Of a DNA stretch of 64,000 nt, positions 6,274 to 40,535 are shown piece by piece. Where the stretch lies: contig CAWJLP010000005.1 of assembly GCA_963843745.1 (NCBI GenBank), positions 214,014 through 278,013 on the forward strand, read 5' to 3'. The first letter of the stretch is position 1, and each line of letters opens with the position of its first letter. The position numbers and the translations under genes were made by a program. The stretch comes from an uncultured Actinomycetota bacterium (GTDB taxonomy: Bacteria; Actinomycetota; Actinomycetes; Streptosporangiales; Streptosporangiaceae). Below the pieces are notes generated by a model, which saw only the letters and a program-made list of their open reading frames with translations, made no database searches and was not told where the DNA came from.

Positions 6274-6693
6274 TCACCCGAGGAATGACTCCACGTGGGA
6301 GACGAACGCCGCCTGGTCCTGGAACAGGAAGGCGTGCCCGGCGCCGGGGAACAGGGTGAGCCGCGCGCCGGGGATCAGTCCGGCGAGGGTGCGGCTGCTG
6401 ACGGCGGGATCGAGCTGGTCCGCCGCGCCGTCGGCGATGAGCGTGGGAGCGGTGATCAGCGCGCTGGCCTGGTTCGCCATGGCGTCGACGCCGGCCAGCG
6501 CCGGCAGCGCCGCCGTTCCGCCGAGGCCGGCGTTGTCGAAGATCACCACGCGATACCGCTGAGCCAGGCGTCGACCAGCCGCGGGTCCCAGGTCTCCATG
6601 GTGCCGCCGTAGCCCATGACCAGGACCAGCGGCAGTCCGCTGCCGACGGCGCGGTAGGCGACGGTGATCCCACGTCGGCGTGCGTGAGGTCAC
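6274..6693 (-). pseudogene. Decayed alpha/beta-hydrolase gene (frameshifts plus loss of the nucleophile-elbow segment)
   Basis: GLPLVLVMGYGGTMETWDPRLVDA reads in one minus frame. LAQRYRVVIFDNAGLGGT...APTLIADGAADQLDP...FPGAGHAFLFQDQAAFVSHVESFL reads in another, consistent with a 1-nt loss near gacgcc/tggctc. There is no GxSxG region between the FDNAG block and the C-terminal His block. Confidence 0.7.
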
Positions 6694-6709
6694 CCGCGTT
6701 CCGGTACGG

Positions 6710-9655
6710 CTAGCCCGGTACGGCTCGCACGAAATTCCTGATAAGCGCCGCGCCGTGCGTGGTGAGGATCGACTCCGGGTGGAACTGGACGCCCTCGACC
6801 GGGGCGCTGACGTGCCGCAGCCCCATTGGCAGGCCGTCGCTTCTTGCTGTTATCACAAGGTCGGCGGGCAGCGTGTGCTCGTCGACGATGAGCGAGTGGT
6901 AGCGGGTGGCCTGGAAGGGGCTGGGCAGGCCCGCCAGCACGCCCGCGCCGTCGTGGGTGACCGCGAAGGCCTGGCCGTGCACCGGGCGGGGCGCCTTGAC
7001 GATGTCCGCGCCGAACGCCGCCGCTATCGCCTGGTGCCCCAGGCAGATGCCGAGCAGCGGGACCACCCCGGCGCAGCTTCGGACCACGTCGATGCTGATC
7101 CCGGCCTCGGCGGGGGCGCAGGGGCCCGGCGAGATCACCACGCCCGCCGGGGCCGCCCCGGCGACCTGGGCGGCGGTCACCTCGTCGTTGCGGACGACCT
7201 CGACCAGGCAGCCCGCGCTGTCCAGCAGGTGGGCGAGGTTCCAGGTGAACGAGTCGTAGTTGTCGATGAGGATCACGAGCGGGCCCGCGGGCCGCTTCTT
7301 GCTGTTATCACCAGTCCGGATGGCGGCGCTATTGGCGGTGTGGCCCACAGCGCCAATAGATTCGCGGTTGTGGGCCACACCGCTAATCCGGTGTGGCGCT
7401 GGCGGCGACGGGGGCGTGGCTGGCGGGCCCATTGGTGCCGGCGGGGCGAACGGCGGGTCGAAGGGGCGGGCGGCGAGGGTGGCGGCCAGACGGCGGGCCA
7501 CCGGGCCGGGGGCCCAGGACATGGCGCCGTGGTCGACGGCCGGGATTCGTCCGGCGGCGACGGGCAGGGCGTCGGTGACCGGGAGGACGGCGGCGACGGG
7601 CAGGGCGTCGGCGACCGGGAGGACGGCGGTGACCGGGAGGACGGCGGTGACCGGGAGGACGGCGGCGACCGGGAGGACGGCGGTGACCGGGAGGACGGCG
7701 GCGACCGCGTTGGTCACGAAGACCTCGCTGGCCGCCTGGAGCTGGTCGAGGGTCAGCGGCTTGAAGCCGACCTTGATCCCGCTGTCGTGCGCGGCCTGGA
7801 TAATCGCGGCCCTCGTGGTGCCGGGCAGCAGGCGGCCGTCCGCTGGCGGGGTGAGCAGCACGCCGTCGGCGACCGCGAAGAGGTTCGCCCGGTCGGTTTC
7901 GAGCAGCTCGCCGGTGTCGTCGGTGAGCAGCAGCTGCTCGCCGGGGGCCAGGCGCGCCTGGCGGGTGAGCTCGGCGAGCAGCCGGCGGTCCCGGTACTTG
8001 TGCGCGCCGATGCCGCCTGAGACGGTCACCGGGCGCAGCGCAACCGCGTCCGGCGGCGGGGCGAGCGGGACGACCTCGACGGTGGCCTGCAGCGGGCCGC
8101 CGACCGGGCGGACGGTGATCCGCAGCCGGCCCGTCGGCCGCGCGGCCAGGCACCGGGCCAGGCCGGCGGGCAGCGAGACCGGCAGGTCCTTCGCGTACAG
8201 CCGCGCGACGCTGGCGGCCAGCCGGTCCAGGTGGGCGGCGAGCCCGCGGGTCCGGCCGTCGGTAACCACGAGCGAAGTGAACACGCCGGCGGTGGGGCGC
8301 GGCGCGAGGTCGGCGGCCGGTCCCGCGGCTTCGGTGTCCAAACGGGCGCCGAGCGCGGTGAGCAGCGGGGTGGCCTTGGTGAGGCACTCGGCGTATTCGG
8401 CCGCGTCGTCGGAGTCGGCGACGATGCCGCCGCCGGCGCCGAGCCAGACCCGGCCGGCCGCGAACTCGAAGGTGCGGATCGCGACGTTGAGCTCAAGGCC
8501 CGCGACCGGCGAGCGGTAACCGATCGCGCCGGTGTAGACCTCGCGCGGCGTGGCCTCCAGTTCGTCGACGACCTCGAGGGCGCGCACCTTCGGGGCGCCG
8601 GTGACCGAGCCGGGCGGGAAGGCCGCCCGGATCAGGTCGCCGTCGGTGGCGCCGGAGCGGAGCGTGCCGCGGACCGTGGAGACGAGGTGCCAGACGCCGG
8701 GGTGCGGCTCGGCGCCGAGCAGGCTGGGCACGGTGACGCTGCCCGGGACGCAGACCCGGCTGAGGTCGTTGCGCACCAGGTCGACGATCATCACGTTCTC
8801 CGCGCGGTTCTTCGCCGAGCGCTCCAGGGCGGCCCGCTGCGCTTCGGCCTGGGCGCGGTCGGCCTGGTCGCGGGGCGCCGTGCCCTTGATGGGCTTGGAC
8901 TCGACGGCCGTGCCGGCGCGGCGCAGGAACAGCTCGGGAGAAAGGCTCGCGACCGCGCCGCCGGCCGCGGCGAGGAACGCTGCGTACGGGGGCGCCAGGG
9001 CGGCCGCCGCCTGGCAGAACGCGTCGAGCGGGTCACCGCGGAAGCTCGCCTCCGCGCGCAGGCAGATGTTGGCCTGGAAGATGTCTCCCTGCCCGATGTA
9101 CTCGACCGCCGCGCGGACCGCCGCGCGGTGCCGCGCGGGGGACGGGACCAGCCGGAAGTCGCCGCACTCGAAGGCGCCGGGGTCGGCGGACGGTTCCGCG
9201 GCCCGCCGCGACAGATCCTCGAACCGCCGCTCCATGGCCTCGCCATCGGTGCACAGCGCCTCGAAGAACCACTCCCCCGTCGCCCGGTCCCGGCGCAGCA
9301 CGTGGTCGTACCAGCCGAACCACCACGCGGGCAGCCGCCGCGCGCCGGCCGGCGGCAGCGCCTCGCCCGCGGCGCTGTATCCCAGGTAGCCGATCCACCC
9401 GCCGCCGAACGCCGGGTCCGCGCCGGCACCCCGGTCCAGCGTCGGCGTCGCGGGGAGCGCCTCGTCGAGGACGTCGTCCAGCGGCCCGCTCGCGCTGCTG
9501 CGCACCAGCCGCGGCCGGGAACCGACGATGTCGCAGCCGCCTGCCCACGCGCCGAACAAGGCCACGGGATGCGGATCCGCCCGGACCAGGCGCAGCACCT
9601 GCACGGGCGTGAGATCCCAGTTGAGCGGCCTGCGGACCAGGCGGATGTCCGGCAT
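6710..9655 (-). CDS. pabB: Single ORF joining aminodeoxychorismate synthase component I (PabB), a class-IV aminotransferase/ADC-lyase-like module (PabC) and a glutamine amidotransferase (PabA/TrpG-like)
   Basis: Lies within ORF 6710..10345; the likely start is ATG 9655 (MPDIRLVRRPLNW).
- The PabB module spans about 8300..9655 (SKPIKGTAPRD, chorismate-binding C-terminus).
- The PabC-like module spans about 7400..8290 (FTSLVVTDGRTRGL...EVFVTNAV).
- The GATase module spans 6710..7276 (ILIDNYDSFTWNL, GICLGHQ, FHPES).
- There is no in-frame stop between modules.
- An internal GTG at 7276 would give a canonical MILIDNYDSF PabA start. Confidence 0.75.
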   Translation of the reverse strand: MPDIRLVRRPLNWDLTPVQVLRLVRADPHPVALFGAWAGGCDIVGSRPRLVRSSASGPLDDVLDEALPATPTLDRGAGADPAFGGGWIGYLGYSAAGEALPPAGARRLPAWWFGWYDHVLRRDRATGEWFFEALCTDGEAMERRFEDLSRRAAEPSADPGAFECGDFRLVPSPARHRAAVRAAVEYIGQGDIFQANICLRAEASFRGDPLDAFCQAAAALAPPYAAFLAAAGGAVASLSPELFLRRAGTAVESKPIKGTAPRDQADRAQAEAQRAALERSAKNRAENVMIVDLVRNDLSRVCVPGSVTVPSLLGAEPHPGVWHLVSTVRGTLRSGATDGDLIRAAFPPGSVTGAPKVRALEVVDELEATPREVYTGAIGYRSPVAGLELNVAIRTFEFAAGRVWLGAGGGIVADSDDAAEYAECLTKATPLLTALGARLDTEAAGPAADLAPRPTAGVFTSLVVTDGRTRGLAAHLDRLAASVARLYAKDLPVSLPAGLARCLAARPTGRLRITVRPVGGPLQATVEVVPLAPPPDAVALRPVTVSGGIGAHKYRDRRLLAELTRQARLAPGEQLLLTDDTGELLETDRANLFAVADGVLLTPPADGRLLPGTTRAAIIQAAHDSGIKVGFKPLTLDQLQAASEVFVTNAVAAVLPVTAVLPVAAVLPVTAVLPVTAVLPVADALPVAAVLPVTDALPVAAGRIPAVDHGAMSWAPGPVARRLAATLAARPFDPPFAPPAPMGPPATPPSPPAPHRISGVAHNRESIGAVGHTANSAAIRTGDNSKKRPAGPLVILIDNYDSFTWNLAHLLDSAGCLVEVVRNDEVTAAQVAGAAPAGVVISPGPCAPAEAGISIDVVRSCAGVVPLLGICLGHQAIAAAFGADIVKAPRPVHGQAFAVTHDGAGVLAGLPSPFQATRYHSLIVDEHTLPADLVITARSDGLPMGLRHVSAPVEGVQFHPESILTTHGAALIRNFVRAVPG
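7329..7387 (-). promoter_or_regulatory. Two tandem imperfect palindromes (about ATTGGCG-N-TGTGGSCCACA-N-CGCCAAT) in a locally lower-GC segment just upstream of the PabA module
   Basis: attggcggtgtggcccaca (7331..7349) is the reverse complement of tgtgggccacaccgctaat (7369..7387) with one mismatch. In addition, ctattggcg (7329..7337) pairs with cgccaatag (7351..7359). Either an operator or an alternative hairpin is possible. Confidence 0.4.
7559..7702 (-). repeat. In-frame 18-bp tandem repeat x8 (hexapeptide T/A-A/D-V/A-L-P-V) inside the PabC-like module
   Basis: The plus-strand units gaccgggaggacggcgg(t/c) and gacgggcagggcgtcgg(t/c) are contiguous from 7559 to 7702. They translate as AAVLPV TAVLPV AAVLPV TAVLPV TAVLPV ADALPV AAVLPV TDALPV. 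Confidence 0.95.
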
Positions 9656-9886
9656 GCGTAGACGATAACCGGCCCGGTCCACTGCCAGCCTTGGCCCGCA
9701 GGACAAAAAGCCAGATAGGGGGCGGCTGCCCACACACAACGCGGGCGGCCCGGCCGCCACCGGCCACAAGGTAATCGCCGCGCCCGTCGTGGCAGCCACA
9801 AGGGCACGGCGGGAGCCCGAGTCAGCGACGGCGCCGGAGCGTACCATTAAGGTCACGCAGGCGGAGCCGAAGCACCGGAGGCTGCG

Positions 9887-10408
9887 ATGGGACTGCGAGC
9901 GCGGCGGCGGACCGTTGTGGTGTGGCGCTCGTCCCGGGGCCCGGCCGGCAGGTACGGCCTGACGGCGCTCCCGCGGCCCGCGAGCACCCGGCGGCTGCAC
10001 AGGCTCCTTCGCGTCAGCGGCCTGCTCACGGCCATCGGGCTGGTCCGGCTGGGACACGCGCTGCGCTTGCGCTGGCGCCCCCTGCTGGCGGGCGGGGCGC
10101 TGACCGTGACCGGCGCCGTGCTGAACGACGGACCGGGCGCCCTGGCCTTCCTCGCCGGGTTCCTGTTCCTTTTTGCCGCGCTGATCATGCATGTCAGCCC
10201 GCCCGCGGACCGCCAGCGGCGGCTGGAGCTGGAGCGCGAGCTCGCGGACTACTCGACCCCTGCCGAGCGGCGCGACCTCGAAGCGATTTTCGACCGGTAC
10301 TCGGACGGCGACACGAGCGAGCTGCGTGACATCCTCACCCGGCAAGCCGCGGCCACCGATGACAACGGGGTGCCGGGCATCGGACGGCTCCCGGTCAACC
10401 TCCGGTGA
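9887..10408 (+). CDS. Hypothetical membrane protein
   Basis: 173-aa ORF with good GC3 codon usage. It has an Arg-rich N-terminus, two hydrophobic helices (LLTAIGLVRL, GALAFLAGFLFLFAALIM) and an acidic C-terminal tail. I recognise no family. Confidence 0.6.
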   Translation: MGLRARRRTVVVWRSSRGPAGRYGLTALPRPASTRRLHRLLRVSGLLTAIGLVRLGHALRLRWRPLLAGGALTVTGAVLNDGPGALAFLAGFLFLFAALIMHVSPPADRQRRLELERELADYSTPAERRDLEAIFDRYSDGDTSELRDILTRQAAATDDNGVPGIGRLPVNLR

Positions 10409-12238: not shown

Positions 12239-13686
12239 ATGAGCCCGCCCCGCTCCCGGTGGCTGACCAGGCACATTCTCCTCGACCTCACGCCGCTGCG
12301 CCGCTCGGCGGACTTCCGTGCGCTGATAGCCGGGCTCGGGGTGTCCACCTTCGGCACCCAGCTGACCGCCGTCGCGGTGCCCTACCAGGTGTACGGGCTC
12401 ACGCGCTCGTCGCTGTACGTGGGGCTGGTGTCGCTCGCGCAGCTGTTCCCGCTGATCCTCGGGTCGCTGTTCGGCGGGTCGCTCGTCGACGCGGTGGACC
12501 GGCGGCGGATGCTGCTCGTGGTCGAGGCGCTTGGCGCGGTGTCGAGTGCCGGGCTGGCGCTGAACGCGGACTTCGGTCCCGTGCTGTGGCCGCTGTTCCT
12601 GTTCCCGGCCGTGACCGCGGCGCTGAGCGGGATGGACAGCTCGGCGCGCAACGCGATGGTGCCCGGCATGGTCGGGCTGGCGGCGGTTCCGGCGGCCAAC
12701 GCGATGTTCCAGGCGCTGTTCCAGACCGGCGGGATCGTCGGGCCCGCGCTGGCCGGGCTGCTGCTCGCGGGGCCGGCGTGCGGGCGGTGTACTGGATTGA
12801 CGTCTGTAGTTACCTGGTGGCCCTGGTGGCCGTGCTGGCGATTTCCCCGCAGCCGCCGGCCCGGGGCGCGGCGGGCGCGGCGCCCGTGCGGCCCGGGTGG
12901 CGGTCGACGATGGAGGGGCTGCGGTTCGTCCGGCGGTCCCAGCCTGTGCAGGGCGCTTACCTGATCGACTTGAACGCGATGGTGTTCGGGATGCCACGGG
13001 CGCTTTTCCCCGCGCTCGCGGCGAACGTGTTCGGGGGCGGCGCGACCACCGTCGGGCTGCTGTACGCGGCGCCCGGGACCGGCGCGCTGCTCGGCGCGCT
13101 GACCAGCGGCTGGGTCGGGCGGGTGCGCCGTCAGGGGCTCGCGGTGATCTGCGCGGTCATCGTGTGGGGGCTGGCGATCGCCGGCTTCGGGCTGGTGCGG
13201 TTCCTGCCGTTGGCACTGCTGCTGCTCGCCGTCGCGGGCCTCGCGGACGTCGTGTCCGCGGTATTCCGCAATACGATCATCCAGTTCGCCGCGCCCGACG
13301 CGATGCGCGGGCGGCTGCAGGGCGTGCAGATGGCGGTGGTAGCCGGCGGGCCGCGGCTTGGCGACCTAGAGGCCGGCGTGGTGGCGACGGCGTTCGGCGA
13401 CACGGTGTCCGTGGTGTCCGGAGGGCTGGCCTGCGTGGCCGGCGCGCTGGTCGTGGCGCGGCTGCTGCCGGGGTTCAGGCACGAGCGTTCGGCTGTGGGT
13501 ACCGTGGGGCATGATGGGGTCCTCGCTGCCGCTGGCGAGGCTGTTGTGGCGGCTGGGCCTGTTGCGCCGGTTGAGTTGTGGCTGATGCGGTTGAGTCGGC
13601 TGATGCGGTTGAGTCGGCTGATGCGGTTGATAGTGCGGAGCAGGAGGCGTAACCGGCGTCCTTGCGGTGTTTGCCTGGGGCGTTAG
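12239..13686 (+). pseudogene. MFS transporter (EntS/MFS_3-like) interrupted by a frameshift near 12770..12790
   Basis: The N-terminal half (MSPPRSRWLTRHILLDLTPLRRSADFRALIAGLGVSTFGTQL...GPALAGLLLAG) is in the frame of ORF 11825..12964. The continuation (VRAVYWIDVCSYLVALVAVL...RGRLQGVQMAV...) is in the frame of ORF 12259..13686. Confidence 0.7.
13563..13634 (+). repeat. 18-bp tandem repeat (gctgatgcggttgagtcg, about 4 copies, outer ones degenerate)
   Basis: Perfect copies lie at 13581..13598 and 13599..13616, with diverged copies on both sides. In the MFS frame it translates as LMRLSRLMRLSRLMRL. It lies in the tail between the MFS core and the convergent NAT gene. Confidence 0.85.
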
Positions 13687-14558
13687 CCCACGCCGCGCGG
13701 GGCGGCGACCAGCGTGGCCAGCTCCTCGTCGGTGAAGGTCAAGCCGAAGACATCACTGAGCGAGGTGGCGAATTCCTCGTCGGTCAGCGTGCGGCGGTTC
13801 TTGACGTGGCCGGGCGTGGTGATGGTGTACATCCGGCCGACCAGGGCATGGACGGCGTCCGGGTAGCGACGGGCCACGATCGGCTGCCAGGTGAACCACG
13901 ACTCCGGGTAGGTCGCCGTGAAGTGGTTCGACAGCACCACGTCCGCCGGGTACACCGGGCGGTCCTCGTACCTGTAGAGCGTGACCCACTCGCCGGCCTG
14001 CAGCTCGCGGACCTTCCAGGTTTCTTCGGCGTCGTCGGGGGCTATCTCGTAGGTCCAGCCGTCTAGTTCCTGCGGGTCGCTAAGGTTTCTGGCGCGTAGC
14101 GCCAGCGGGCCTGGGGGCGAGTTGCCGAAGCCGACGTCGGCGAGCCAGGTCCCGCCGTCCGCCTCGACGCGCAAGGTCAGGTGCGTACGCGGGCGCACCG
14201 GCTCGCCGTCCGGGCCGACCCGCGCGAGCAGCCGGTCCACCCGGTAGCCGAGACGTTCCAGGACCGCGCCGAACAGCTGGCCTTGCTCGTAGCAGTAGCC
14301 GCCCCGGTTCGCGTAGACGAGTTTGGCTTGGATCGAGTCGAAGTCCACGCGGACGCCGCGGCCGAGCATCAGGTCCAGGTTCTCGAACGGGATGGCCGCC
14401 AGGTGCGCGCGGTGCAGCGCCGCGAGGGTGGCGGGCGACGGGTCGAGCGCGCCGTCGTACCCGATGCGCCGCAGGTAGGCGTCGAGGTCAAGGTTACGGA
14501 CGGACCACTCGTCGGGCGCCGTCGCCTCGTCGGGTGTGGTTGGCCCGGTGGCCGCCAT
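13683..14558 (-). CDS. nat: Arylamine N-acetyltransferase
   Basis: The motifs are LDAYLRRIGYDG...PSPATLAALHRAHLAAIPFENLD and the catalytic-Cys block RGGYCYEQ. Its start overlaps the doxX-like stop by 1 nt. Confidence 0.9.
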   Translation of the reverse strand: MAATGPTTPDEATAPDEWSVRNLDLDAYLRRIGYDGALDPSPATLAALHRAHLAAIPFENLDLMLGRGVRVDFDSIQAKLVYANRGGYCYEQGQLFGAVLERLGYRVDRLLARVGPDGEPVRPRTHLTLRVEADGGTWLADVGFGNSPPGPLALRARNLSDPQELDGWTYEIAPDDAEETWKVRELQAGEWVTLYRYEDRPVYPADVVLSNHFTATYPESWFTWQPIVARRYPDAVHALVGRMYTITTPGHVKNRRTLTDEEFATSLSDVFGLTFTDEELATLVAAPRGVG

Positions 14559-39363: not shown

Positions 39364-39867
39364 CTAACGGCTCAGCGGCCCGAGCCTGTCCCGGCGCTGC
39401 GGCCCGGCCGGCGTGCTCGTGCCGCGGCGCCCCGGCGTCGCCATGCTCGCGAGCACGAGCACGGCCAGGATGGTGACGATGCCCTCGGTGAACAGCGCCG
39501 CCACGCCGAGCGGCTCCAGCCAGTTGCCGCGGTCGCCCGTGTCGCCGGGCACCGGGACGCTGCGGGTGAGGATGTACCCCGCCGCGGCGAGGAAGCAGAC
39601 CAGCCCGCTGAACCCCCAGGCGGCCGAGGACGGCCGGGCCAGCAGCCACAAGCCGGCGACCGGCGCGCAGGCAGCGAGCAGGACGAATCCCGCCGTCAGC
39701 CAGGCGGCGCCGCTGAGCTGGCCCTGGATCTCCAGGACGTGGATGATGCCGACCGTGATGAGCCCGATCGCGGCTGAGGCGCGCACCGCGGGATCAAGCG
39801 GCAGGGCCGGCCGCTGGAGTTCGGCGGTCAGGCGTGCGGGAACCCTGGGCAGCGTGAGGCCAGGCAT
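39364..39867 (-). CDS. Hypothetical membrane protein (four helices)
   Basis: 167-aa ORF with good GC3 usage and hydrophobic segments AIGLITVGIIHVL, AWLTAGFVLLAACAPVAGLWLL, GFSGLVCFLAAAGYIL and LGVAALFTEGIVTILAVLVLA. Confidence 0.6.
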   Translation of the reverse strand: MPGLTLPRVPARLTAELQRPALPLDPAVRASAAIGLITVGIIHVLEIQGQLSGAAWLTAGFVLLAACAPVAGLWLLARPSSAAWGFSGLVCFLAAAGYILTRSVPVPGDTGDRGNWLEPLGVAALFTEGIVTILAVLVLASMATPGRRGTSTPAGPQRRDRLGPLSR

Positions 39868-40060
39868 GCGCTAACTCCCTTTCGGTACTGGCGGGTGACG
39901 TGCACCGCTCTCGCGCACCTCGGGGAGCGCGCGGCTGACTTGCTCCTGACCAGGTCTACGGCCGGCGGCGGCAAAGGGATTGATGATCGCCAATGCTCTT
40001 GCGGTCGCGGTCCTGGCCGGCACCGACGCACCGCCATCTCACATCGTGAGATGATCACGT

Positions 40061-40127
40061 CTTAGGAGCAGAACCCTGCGCTTTTCTTGCTGTTATCAGC
40101 GTTTTGGCGTAGTTTTCTGCTCCTAAG
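40061..40127. repeat. Low-GC inverted-repeat element (13-bp perfect arms, 41-nt loop) carrying the recurring motif TTCTTGCTGTTATCA
   Basis: cttaggagcagaa (40061..40073) pairs with ttctgctcctaag (40115..40127). A second small hairpin, atctcac-atc-gtgagat, lies at 40036..40052. Confidence 0.6.
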
Positions 40128-40181
40128 TGGCGGGGCCAGAGCGCGCTCCGGGGGCCACCACGCCCCTGGCAAGATGGCGGC

Positions 40182-40535
40182 ATGGAACGTGTGCTTGGAG
40201 TTGGCGGGTACTTCATGCGGGCCGCCGACCCGGTGGCCCTGGGGGCGTGGTACCGCGATTGCCTGGGTCTGGACGCTGACGAGAACGGCGTGTGGCATCA
40301 GGAAGCCGGGGTGACAGTGTTCGCGACTTTCGAGTCCGGGACCGAGTACTTCGGCTCCCGCGCTCAGCAGACGATGCTCAACTTCCGTGTCCGCGACCTG
40401 GACGCGATGCTCGCGCAGTTGCGCGCCAAGGGAGCGGACGTGGCCGAGGAGACTCAGGACATGGAGGGCGTCGGCCGGTTCGGCTGGGTCACCGATCCTG
40501 AGGGCAACCGCGTCGAGCTGTGGCAGCCTGGCTGA
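40182..40535 (+). CDS. VOC (glyoxalase/bleomycin-resistance/dioxygenase) family protein
   Basis: The 117-aa ORF ends in ...GRFGWVTDPEGNRVELWQP, a typical VOC C-terminal beta-strand motif. Confidence 0.8.
   Translation: MERVLGVGGYFMRAADPVALGAWYRDCLGLDADENGVWHQEAGVTVFATFESGTEYFGSRAQQTMLNFRVRDLDAMLAQLRAKGADVAEETQDMEGVGRFGWVTDPEGNRVELWQPG

Follow-up and report, generated by a model that had tools for sequence, protein, structure and literature searches.

A predicted trifunctional p-aminobenzoate synthase with its amidotransferase last and dispersed repeats in its linker

We analysed a window of 64,000 nt (positions 214,014 to 278,013 of contig CAWJLP010000005.1, assembly GCA_963843745.1) from an uncultured actinobacterium of the Streptosporangiaceae and describe here a gene on its minus strand, the pab gene, whose modules resemble three enzymes of p-aminobenzoate (PABA) synthesis. 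Translation of the window gave a single open frame of 981 codons from ATG 9655 to the stop at 6712-6710, in agreement with an earlier reading made from the letters alone (the sequence-only reading). The same frame is also free of stops further upstream, up to TTG 10345; since the homologues all begin with MPDIRLV, we placed the gene start at ATG 9655. The Pfam domains Chorismate_bind, Aminotran_4 and GATase cover residues 174-427, 457-660 and 796-977, respectively. Together with the NCBIfam models, they bore out the order read earlier, namely aminodeoxychorismate (ADC) synthase component I (PabB), a PabC-like module and a glutamine amidotransferase (PabA), or B-C-A. From sequence comparison, we consider this likely to be a single gene, whose product of ~102 kDa would perform the whole of PABA synthesis on one polypeptide.

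The PabB module scored above both NCBIfam equivalog cut-offs (NF004530, 420.3 against 383 bits; TIGR00553, 340 against 328.4 bits), and its motif KPIKGT aligned to RPIKGT of Escherichia coli PabB (1K0E). The catalytic lysine in PIKGT (Lys274 in E. coli) sets PabB apart from TrpE, which has PIAGT. The corresponding Lys257 (codon 8887-8885) was invariant in 80 sequences. The amidotransferase module reached 206-211 bits with TIGR00566, against a TrpG/PabA subfamily cut-off of 121, and 185 bits with Pfam GATase. Its residues Cys871 (7045, in GICLGHQ), His959 (6781) and Glu961 (6775, in HPES), which we take from family knowledge to be the Cys-His-Glu triad of the amidotransferase, were invariant across 80 homologues.

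The middle module is a class-IV pyridoxal phosphate (PLP) module (Aminotran_4, 114.7 bits against a cut-off of 28.5). Its Lys553 (7999-7997) aligned to K140 of E. coli PabC, and Glu586 and the arginine of H..RL aligned to E173 and R45 (alignment A3); these three residues presumably bind PLP in E. coli PabC. Several observations weigh against a lyase at this place. The module passed none of the NCBIfam PabC equivalog cut-offs (50-67 bits against 177-273; best scores 66.8 against 260 for NF004761 and 65 against 176.85 for TIGR03461). Its best PDB sequence matches were transaminases, E. coli PabC appearing only at E = 3e-6. In addition, its N-terminal subdomain is shortened, the position of Tyr109 of E. 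coli PabC is taken by Gln, and the genome has a second class-IV gene, which is BCAT/DAAT-like. The gene could therefore be fused and its middle module still have another class-IV PLP activity, or serve as a dimerising spacer, with PABA released by another enzyme or spontaneously. We regard this as unlikely, because the positions of K140, E173 and R45 were invariant in the alignment, no other protein of the genome, class-IV proteins included, passed a PabC equivalog cut-off, and the fusion of a class-IV module to PabB is an established ADC lyase arrangement, with the lyase activity of the Corynebacterium diphtheriae protein DIP1790 having been measured (PMC1971073). Given that the module reached no PabC cut-off, we assign it as a probable aminodeoxychorismate lyase from its context and from the known PabB-PabC and triple fusions.

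Comparison with the orthologous loci, which the sequence-only reading had proposed as a check, found the genes fused in the genus and in further genera. The genomes and proteins compared carry G and P numbers, G000 being the genome of the window; the unpublished genomes G025, G030, G036 and G165 entered only the counts of outgroups and contig edges, and none of the main conclusions depends on them. Among 5.8 billion proteins searched, at least 120 had all three domains, with lengths of about 890-1040 aa and 58-91% identity; those with an organism name were from metagenome-assembled genomes of Trebonia sp. Nine species-representative genomes of the genus have PabB, PabC and PabA in one open frame, and in a tenth the end of a contig interrupts the gene. 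Outside the genus, four more genera of this GTDB family contributed five genomes with a single B-C-A frame (59-70% identity). In most of the remaining genera of the family, PabA stands alone and is about 50% identical. When representatives at 50% identity were searched exhaustively with HMMER and the matches examined with Pfam, eight more B-C-A clusters came up at 44-51% identity, with named members from Mumia (WP_163695280.1, 906 aa) and Aeromicrobium. Finally, we measured the linker between PabC and PabA in 12 genomes, from the PabC tail W..GP to DNYDSFT of PabA. The distance took ten distinct values of 147-252 nt, all of them multiples of three, and the interval was free of stops in 11 of the 12. 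Ten in-frame lengths are very unlikely for unconstrained intergenic spacers. The sequence-only reading had left a choice between a trifunctional synthase and a lost pabC stop; these results support the former. A lost pabC stop or an assembly indel is not supported, the fused frame being conserved at 44-91% identity in several genera.

The linker of the pab gene (residues 734-792, window 7456-7280) is the Pro-rich spacer of about 60 codons and lower GC that had been read before; over 7225-7374, GC is as low as 0.63, the surrounding values being 0.72-0.81. Downstream of its Pro-rich part, the linker is mostly dispersed-repeat DNA, which accounts for its low GC and for the relaxed GC content at its third codon positions (GC3). 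In the AlphaFold2 model, residues 743-788 had a predicted local distance difference test (pLDDT) score below 50 and are thus predicted to be disordered.

The first of these repeats is an element of ~58 bp at 7330-7388, built of two 30-bp units around GTGGSCCAC with an CTATTGGCG / CGCCAATAG frame. With nhmmer, we located it at about 20 loci in G000 (for example C21:499921-499978, C20:152235-152292 and C7:1392944-1393002). With its scattered copies, stable hairpin and location outside genes, it resembles repetitive extragenic palindromic (REP) elements, the pab copy being the exception: among the full-length copies, this one alone is spanned by a coding-like frame, with GC3 of 0.90 and 0.96 on its flanks, and all the others are outside such frames. 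No Rfam family matched the element. Five independent assemblies share its peptide ISGVAHNRESIGAVGHTANS, read in the same frame; the element is missing from some close relatives, and more distant ones have diverged versions (e.g. the linkers of G003 and G007). The element often stands 20-150 nt from a second repeat, a strand-polar 15-mer, TGATAACAGCAAGAA. The linker copy of this 15-mer contains TGATAA, out of frame, at 7310-7305, and is followed by a GC palindrome at 7295-7279. The palindromes and the TGATAA, which the sequence-only reading took as signs of an intergenic region, are therefore both present, as copies of dispersed elements; their spread through the genome had escaped that reading, as had the 18-bp tandem repeat described below.

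We considered whether the hairpin of the linker is a conserved regulatory structure and rejected this, since folding was not in excess in the linkers of G010, G014, G009, G008 and G017 (z -0.2 to +1.4) and the element is missing from several relatives. An operator pair made of the palindromes was likewise ruled out, as they belong to a dispersed repeat. The element behaves as a REP-type insertion in a tolerant linker, not as a conserved regulator or a gene boundary.

The 18-bp unit, repeated 8.7 times, encodes (AVLPVT)n inside the PabC module, as a loop expansion after the 'VLPVT' strand. Relatives hold 1 to about 4 units. The GC3 of the repeat in this frame is 0.98, and the loop (residues 670-708) had a pLDDT below 50 and is predicted to be disordered. 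The PabC module was modelled with good confidence, including the tail after the repeat (residues 711-733), where the frame of the window yields the conserved SW.PGPV.RRLAA.

The genome of the window is 94% complete, and we found no stand-alone TrpG in it. Besides the pab protein, two enzymes of this genome use chorismate: an isochorismate synthase and a TrpE-TrpG fusion of 752 aa, which scored above its equivalog cut-off (NCBIfam TrpE-clade3). Every glutamine-dependent synthase is thus fused to an amidotransferase at its C-terminus, which leaves no need for a free PabA. That the fused PabA serves a free TrpE was ruled out, because anthranilate synthase is the TrpE-TrpG fusion and the third chorismate enzyme is the isochorismate synthase. 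The genome also has FolP-type pterin-binding genes, so PABA has a consumer.

The reading of one gene has to be weighed against two genes in function, in which pabBC ends or is processed in the spacer, PabA is made from GTG 7276 or after cleavage at the hairpin, and the open frame is incidental. A number of observations count against a single gene. First, GTG 7276 yields a canonical PabA N-terminus, and the spacer is made up of elements found elsewhere mostly or only between genes, with GC3 relaxed to 0.67-0.81 against 0.94-0.98 in the modules. Second, a strong hairpin lies inside the coding sequence (7330-7388; 15-bp stem, -41.9 kcal/mol, z = -4.7), and by our own calculation 60 codons at 75% GC are free of stops by chance in about 44% of cases. 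Third, in G019, the closest species genome (89% identity), deletions of 2 nt and 1 nt flank the REP-like element, which is then read in another frame, where CAATAG gives a stop; the PabA frame is restored afterwards, a GTG follows, and the gene is split. G019 is out of frame in the repeat region too, and P0016, P0030, G021, G023 and G016 are frameshifted. These frameshifts may be assembly errors at the repeats, or real decay or fission. Fourth, a 189-aa Mumia entry in NCBI ('anthranilate synthase component II') clusters with the 906-aa protein, which indicates that gene callers sometimes split the frame. Finally, the full-length AlphaFold2 model had a pLDDT of 68 and a predicted template modelling score (pTM) of 0.48; at this pTM, the model is uninformative on domain docking and was used for local order and disorder only.

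Against two genes stand the linker lengths, which are in frame in all 12 genomes, and the occurrence of the fusion with short linkers that have no REP element, in other genera and orders. The internal start is not conserved either: at the position of codon 794, 7 of the 11 genus relatives have neither GTG nor ATG (mostly GTC or ATC), TTG occurs in two, and the position is variable in other genera as well, so GTG 7276 does not serve as the mark of an intergenic spacer for which it had been taken. No Shine-Dalgarno-like sequence is visible upstream of GTG 7276, and with a TrpE that has its own amidotransferase a free PabA is superfluous. Taken together, we judge two separate genes to be improbable. 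The intuition of an intergenic spacer was partly right, in that most of the linker DNA belongs to elements whose other copies are largely or entirely intergenic, and in that the frame of G019 is split. An assembly or sequencing artefact, in which an indel in the repeat-rich 7280-7710 erased a real pabC stop or frameshift, is scarcely credible: although the tandem array and the strong hairpin are both error-prone, and the contigs of relatives end just upstream of PabA (G112, G165 and G001) or frameshift near it, the window has the conserved PabC tail, five independent assemblies share its REP-coded peptide, and the fused frame recurs across genera.

Table 1. Features of the pab gene and their positions in the window
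Feature	Position	Strand	Basis or remark
Whole pabB-pabC-pabA gene	6710..9655	minus	981 codons + stop 6710-6712; B-C-A layout common to relatives
PabB module, aminodeoxychorismate synthase component I, aa 1-445	8321..9655	minus	NF004530, TIGR00553, alignment with 1K0E
PabC-like class-IV PLP module, aa 446-733	7457..8320	minus	Pfam Aminotran_4, 114.7 bits
Tandem repeat, 18 bp x 8.7, in frame, (AVLPVT/A)n	7552..7707	minus	TRF score 228
Interdomain linker, aa 734-792, Pro-rich, then repeat-derived DNA	7280..7456	minus	Low pLDDT, relaxed GC3, variable length
REP-like palindromic element, ~58 bp	7330..7388	minus	nhmmer, hairpin folding; in-frame peptide includes ISGVAHNRESIGAVGHTANS
Polar 15-mer TGATAACAGCAAGAA, read G-D-N-S-K-K, includes out-of-frame TGATAA	7296..7310	minus	Exact genome-wide copies
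GTG codon 794, putative internal start	7274..7276	minus	Codons of relatives vary
PabA/TrpG-type glutamine amidotransferase module, aa 793-981	6713..7279	minus	TIGR00566, Pfam GATase
Second polar 15-mer copy, within PabA coding sequence, read V-I-T-A-R-S	6841..6855	minus	Rare codons ATA ACA GCA AGA

If the pab gene is translated as one chain, its modules would act in the following way. The C-terminal PabA would hydrolyse glutamine and, as expected from family knowledge, hand the ammonia to the N-terminal PabB, which would turn chorismate into 4-amino-4-deoxychorismate by way of Lys257. The central PLP module, with Lys553, would then remove pyruvate and give PABA. The disordered Pro-rich linker of about 57 residues may let PabA fold back and dock onto PabB, and the B-C-A order would be workable because such a linker permits this contact, either within one chain or, if the PabC-like modules pair, across chains. 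The concern of the sequence-only reading, that PabA would lie far from its synthase, thereby loses its force; the TrpE-TrpG fusion of the same genome, moreover, shows that a C-terminal amidotransferase works. As for its history, the fusion probably goes back to the ancestor of a clade within the family. Later, in the lineage of Trebonia, the linker would have gained the REP-like hairpin and the polar 15-mer in frame, and the loop of PabC the expansion of the 18-bp repeat.

Trifunctional PABA synthases are not new. DIP1790 of C. diphtheriae was predicted to be one (PabAa-PabAb-PabAc) and validated in 2007, its ADC synthase and ADC lyase activities being shown by complementation and assay (PMC1971073, de Crecy-Lagard et al.). 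With this trifunctional enzyme on record, the list of known fusions given in the sequence-only reading, which named only A-B and B-C, was incomplete. The same paper calls A-B and B-C (synthase-lyase) fusions common. The pab protein is like DIP1790 in having three PABA-synthesis activities, here predicted, in one polypeptide. The order of DIP1790 is not stated in the paper or its supplement, and A-B-C is only inferred from the corynebacterial pabAB-pabC arrangement. An A-B-C triple fusion does exist (P0186). In comparison with A-B-C fusions, the amidotransferase of the pab protein comes last, after the lyase module, which suggests an independent fusion event.

Other fusions share parts of this layout. 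Bifunctional PabB-PabC proteins (Lactococcus, Listeria and many other bacteria) have the same B-C order as the N-terminal two thirds of the pab protein, but these organisms keep a separate pabA/trpG gene, whereas here PabA is appended through a disordered linker. TrpE-TrpG proteins also consist of a chorismate-using synthase followed by a class-I amidotransferase, with no lyase module between them and with another product; PhzE has the same synthase-then-amidotransferase layout. In the PabA-PabB fusions of fungi, plants, apicomplexans and Streptomyces, synthase and amidotransferase share one chain, but the amidotransferase is first and the lyase is missing; the outgroup genome G031 has this order. 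Our literature search found no paper that mentions the B-C-A order. It is a new domain-order form of the known trifunctional PABA synthase, and it is already present in public databases, where current annotation hides the fusion under generic names such as 'chorismate-binding protein'.

Some Trebonia genomes also hold a second PabB-type protein, about 38-42% identical (P0237/P0294, 985-986 aa; G021:C30, G001:C148). The match to PabB-PabC starts near residue 446 in P0237, consistent with an A-B-C arrangement. This second protein may be a paralogue that serves secondary metabolism.

PABA synthesis thus appears to have been packed into one polypeptide more than once, here in a permuted order with the amidotransferase last. 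The protein offers a natural test case of an ammonia-channelling pair that would tolerate an inserted domain and a long disordered tether. In addition, three repeats of intergenic type (the REP-like hairpin, the polar 15-mer and the 18-bp tandem) would be translated inside an enzyme of an essential pathway, and in a sister species a total change of 3 nt beside the repeat would, if real, return the fusion to a pair of open reading frames (ORFs). For annotation, the warning goes both ways: many metagenome assemblies have the gene broken or frameshifted at its repeats, and gene callers at times divide it in two. A parallel is found among REP/BIME elements in general and in Rickettsia, where palindromic elements are reportedly inserted in frame into protein-coding genes (Ogata et al. 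2000). As there, a dispersed palindromic repeat would be translated within a tolerant region of the pab protein. The pab linker element differs in that it belongs to another sequence family, has ~20 copies, and has its other full-length copies outside coding-like frames.

The polar 15-mer occurs throughout the genome. Exact copies of TGATAACAGCAAGAA number 117 in G000, a count that rises to 170 when up to 2 mismatches are allowed; for the reversed control, the two counts were 0 and 0-1. All 24 genomes of the genus have the 15-mer, and none of 16 outgroup genomes does. The copies on any one contig all lie on the same strand (42/0 on C7, 39/0 on C21, 0/9 on C5), and in G019 all 82 copies, on 27 contigs, obey this rule. 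They are mostly intergenic, most are followed by GCGG, and they often sit in the loop of a hairpin of ~100 nt or before a GC palindrome. The dnaA contig of G000 has two copies that point in the same direction as dnaA, and along C7 and C21 the density of copies increases in the direction in which the motif points. GC skew was too weak to orient the contigs relative to replication. The window has a third copy at 40083-40097, besides the two sense-strand copies in the pab gene (7296-7310 and 6841-6855); an Rfam search of the hairpin element at 39850-40300 gave chance-level matches only.

The copy within PabA bears on whether the motif is kept as DNA. At this site, the 15-mer is exact in G019 and G009 and has 1 mismatch in G010, and other species encode the V-I-T-A-R-S peptide with GC-rich codons. 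A motif of rare codons within PabA, where others use GC-rich ones, suggests from sequence that selection may act on the 15-mer DNA itself. Our literature search found no paper on it. We put forward, tentatively and as rather less probable than its opposite, that the 15-mer is a selected signal for chromosome orientation or linked to replication, KOPS-like or Ter-like; alternatively, it could be a relic of single-strand transposition. Were it such a signal, long polar motifs of this kind would be new to Actinobacteria, and the pab linker would be a site at which DNA-level signals can land and be tolerated.

Two doublets were seen in the assembly of G000. Identical dnaA matches occur on two contigs (C6:595663-596148 and C16:10421-10906), and matching class-IV aminotransferase copies that differ in at least one residue lie at C15:13622-14296 and C13:144097-144645, one of them at a contig end. 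Both suggest overlapping or duplicated contig ends in the assembly.

A consensus scan of 6500-10000 found no promoter or terminator, a scan that actinobacterial promoters may escape, and an Rfam search of 6400-10400 returned chance-level matches only, with no known RNA family. The genes flanking the pab gene are unrelated to folate. Directly downstream lies an ORF of 139 aa (6274-6693, minus strand) that matches alpha/beta-hydrolase profiles in its C-terminal part only and may be a truncated gene or have a mis-set start. Further away, ~4 kb from the PABA synthase gene, the minus strand carries an arylamine N-acetyltransferase (PF00797, 199 bits) at 13683-14558; PABA is an arylamine.

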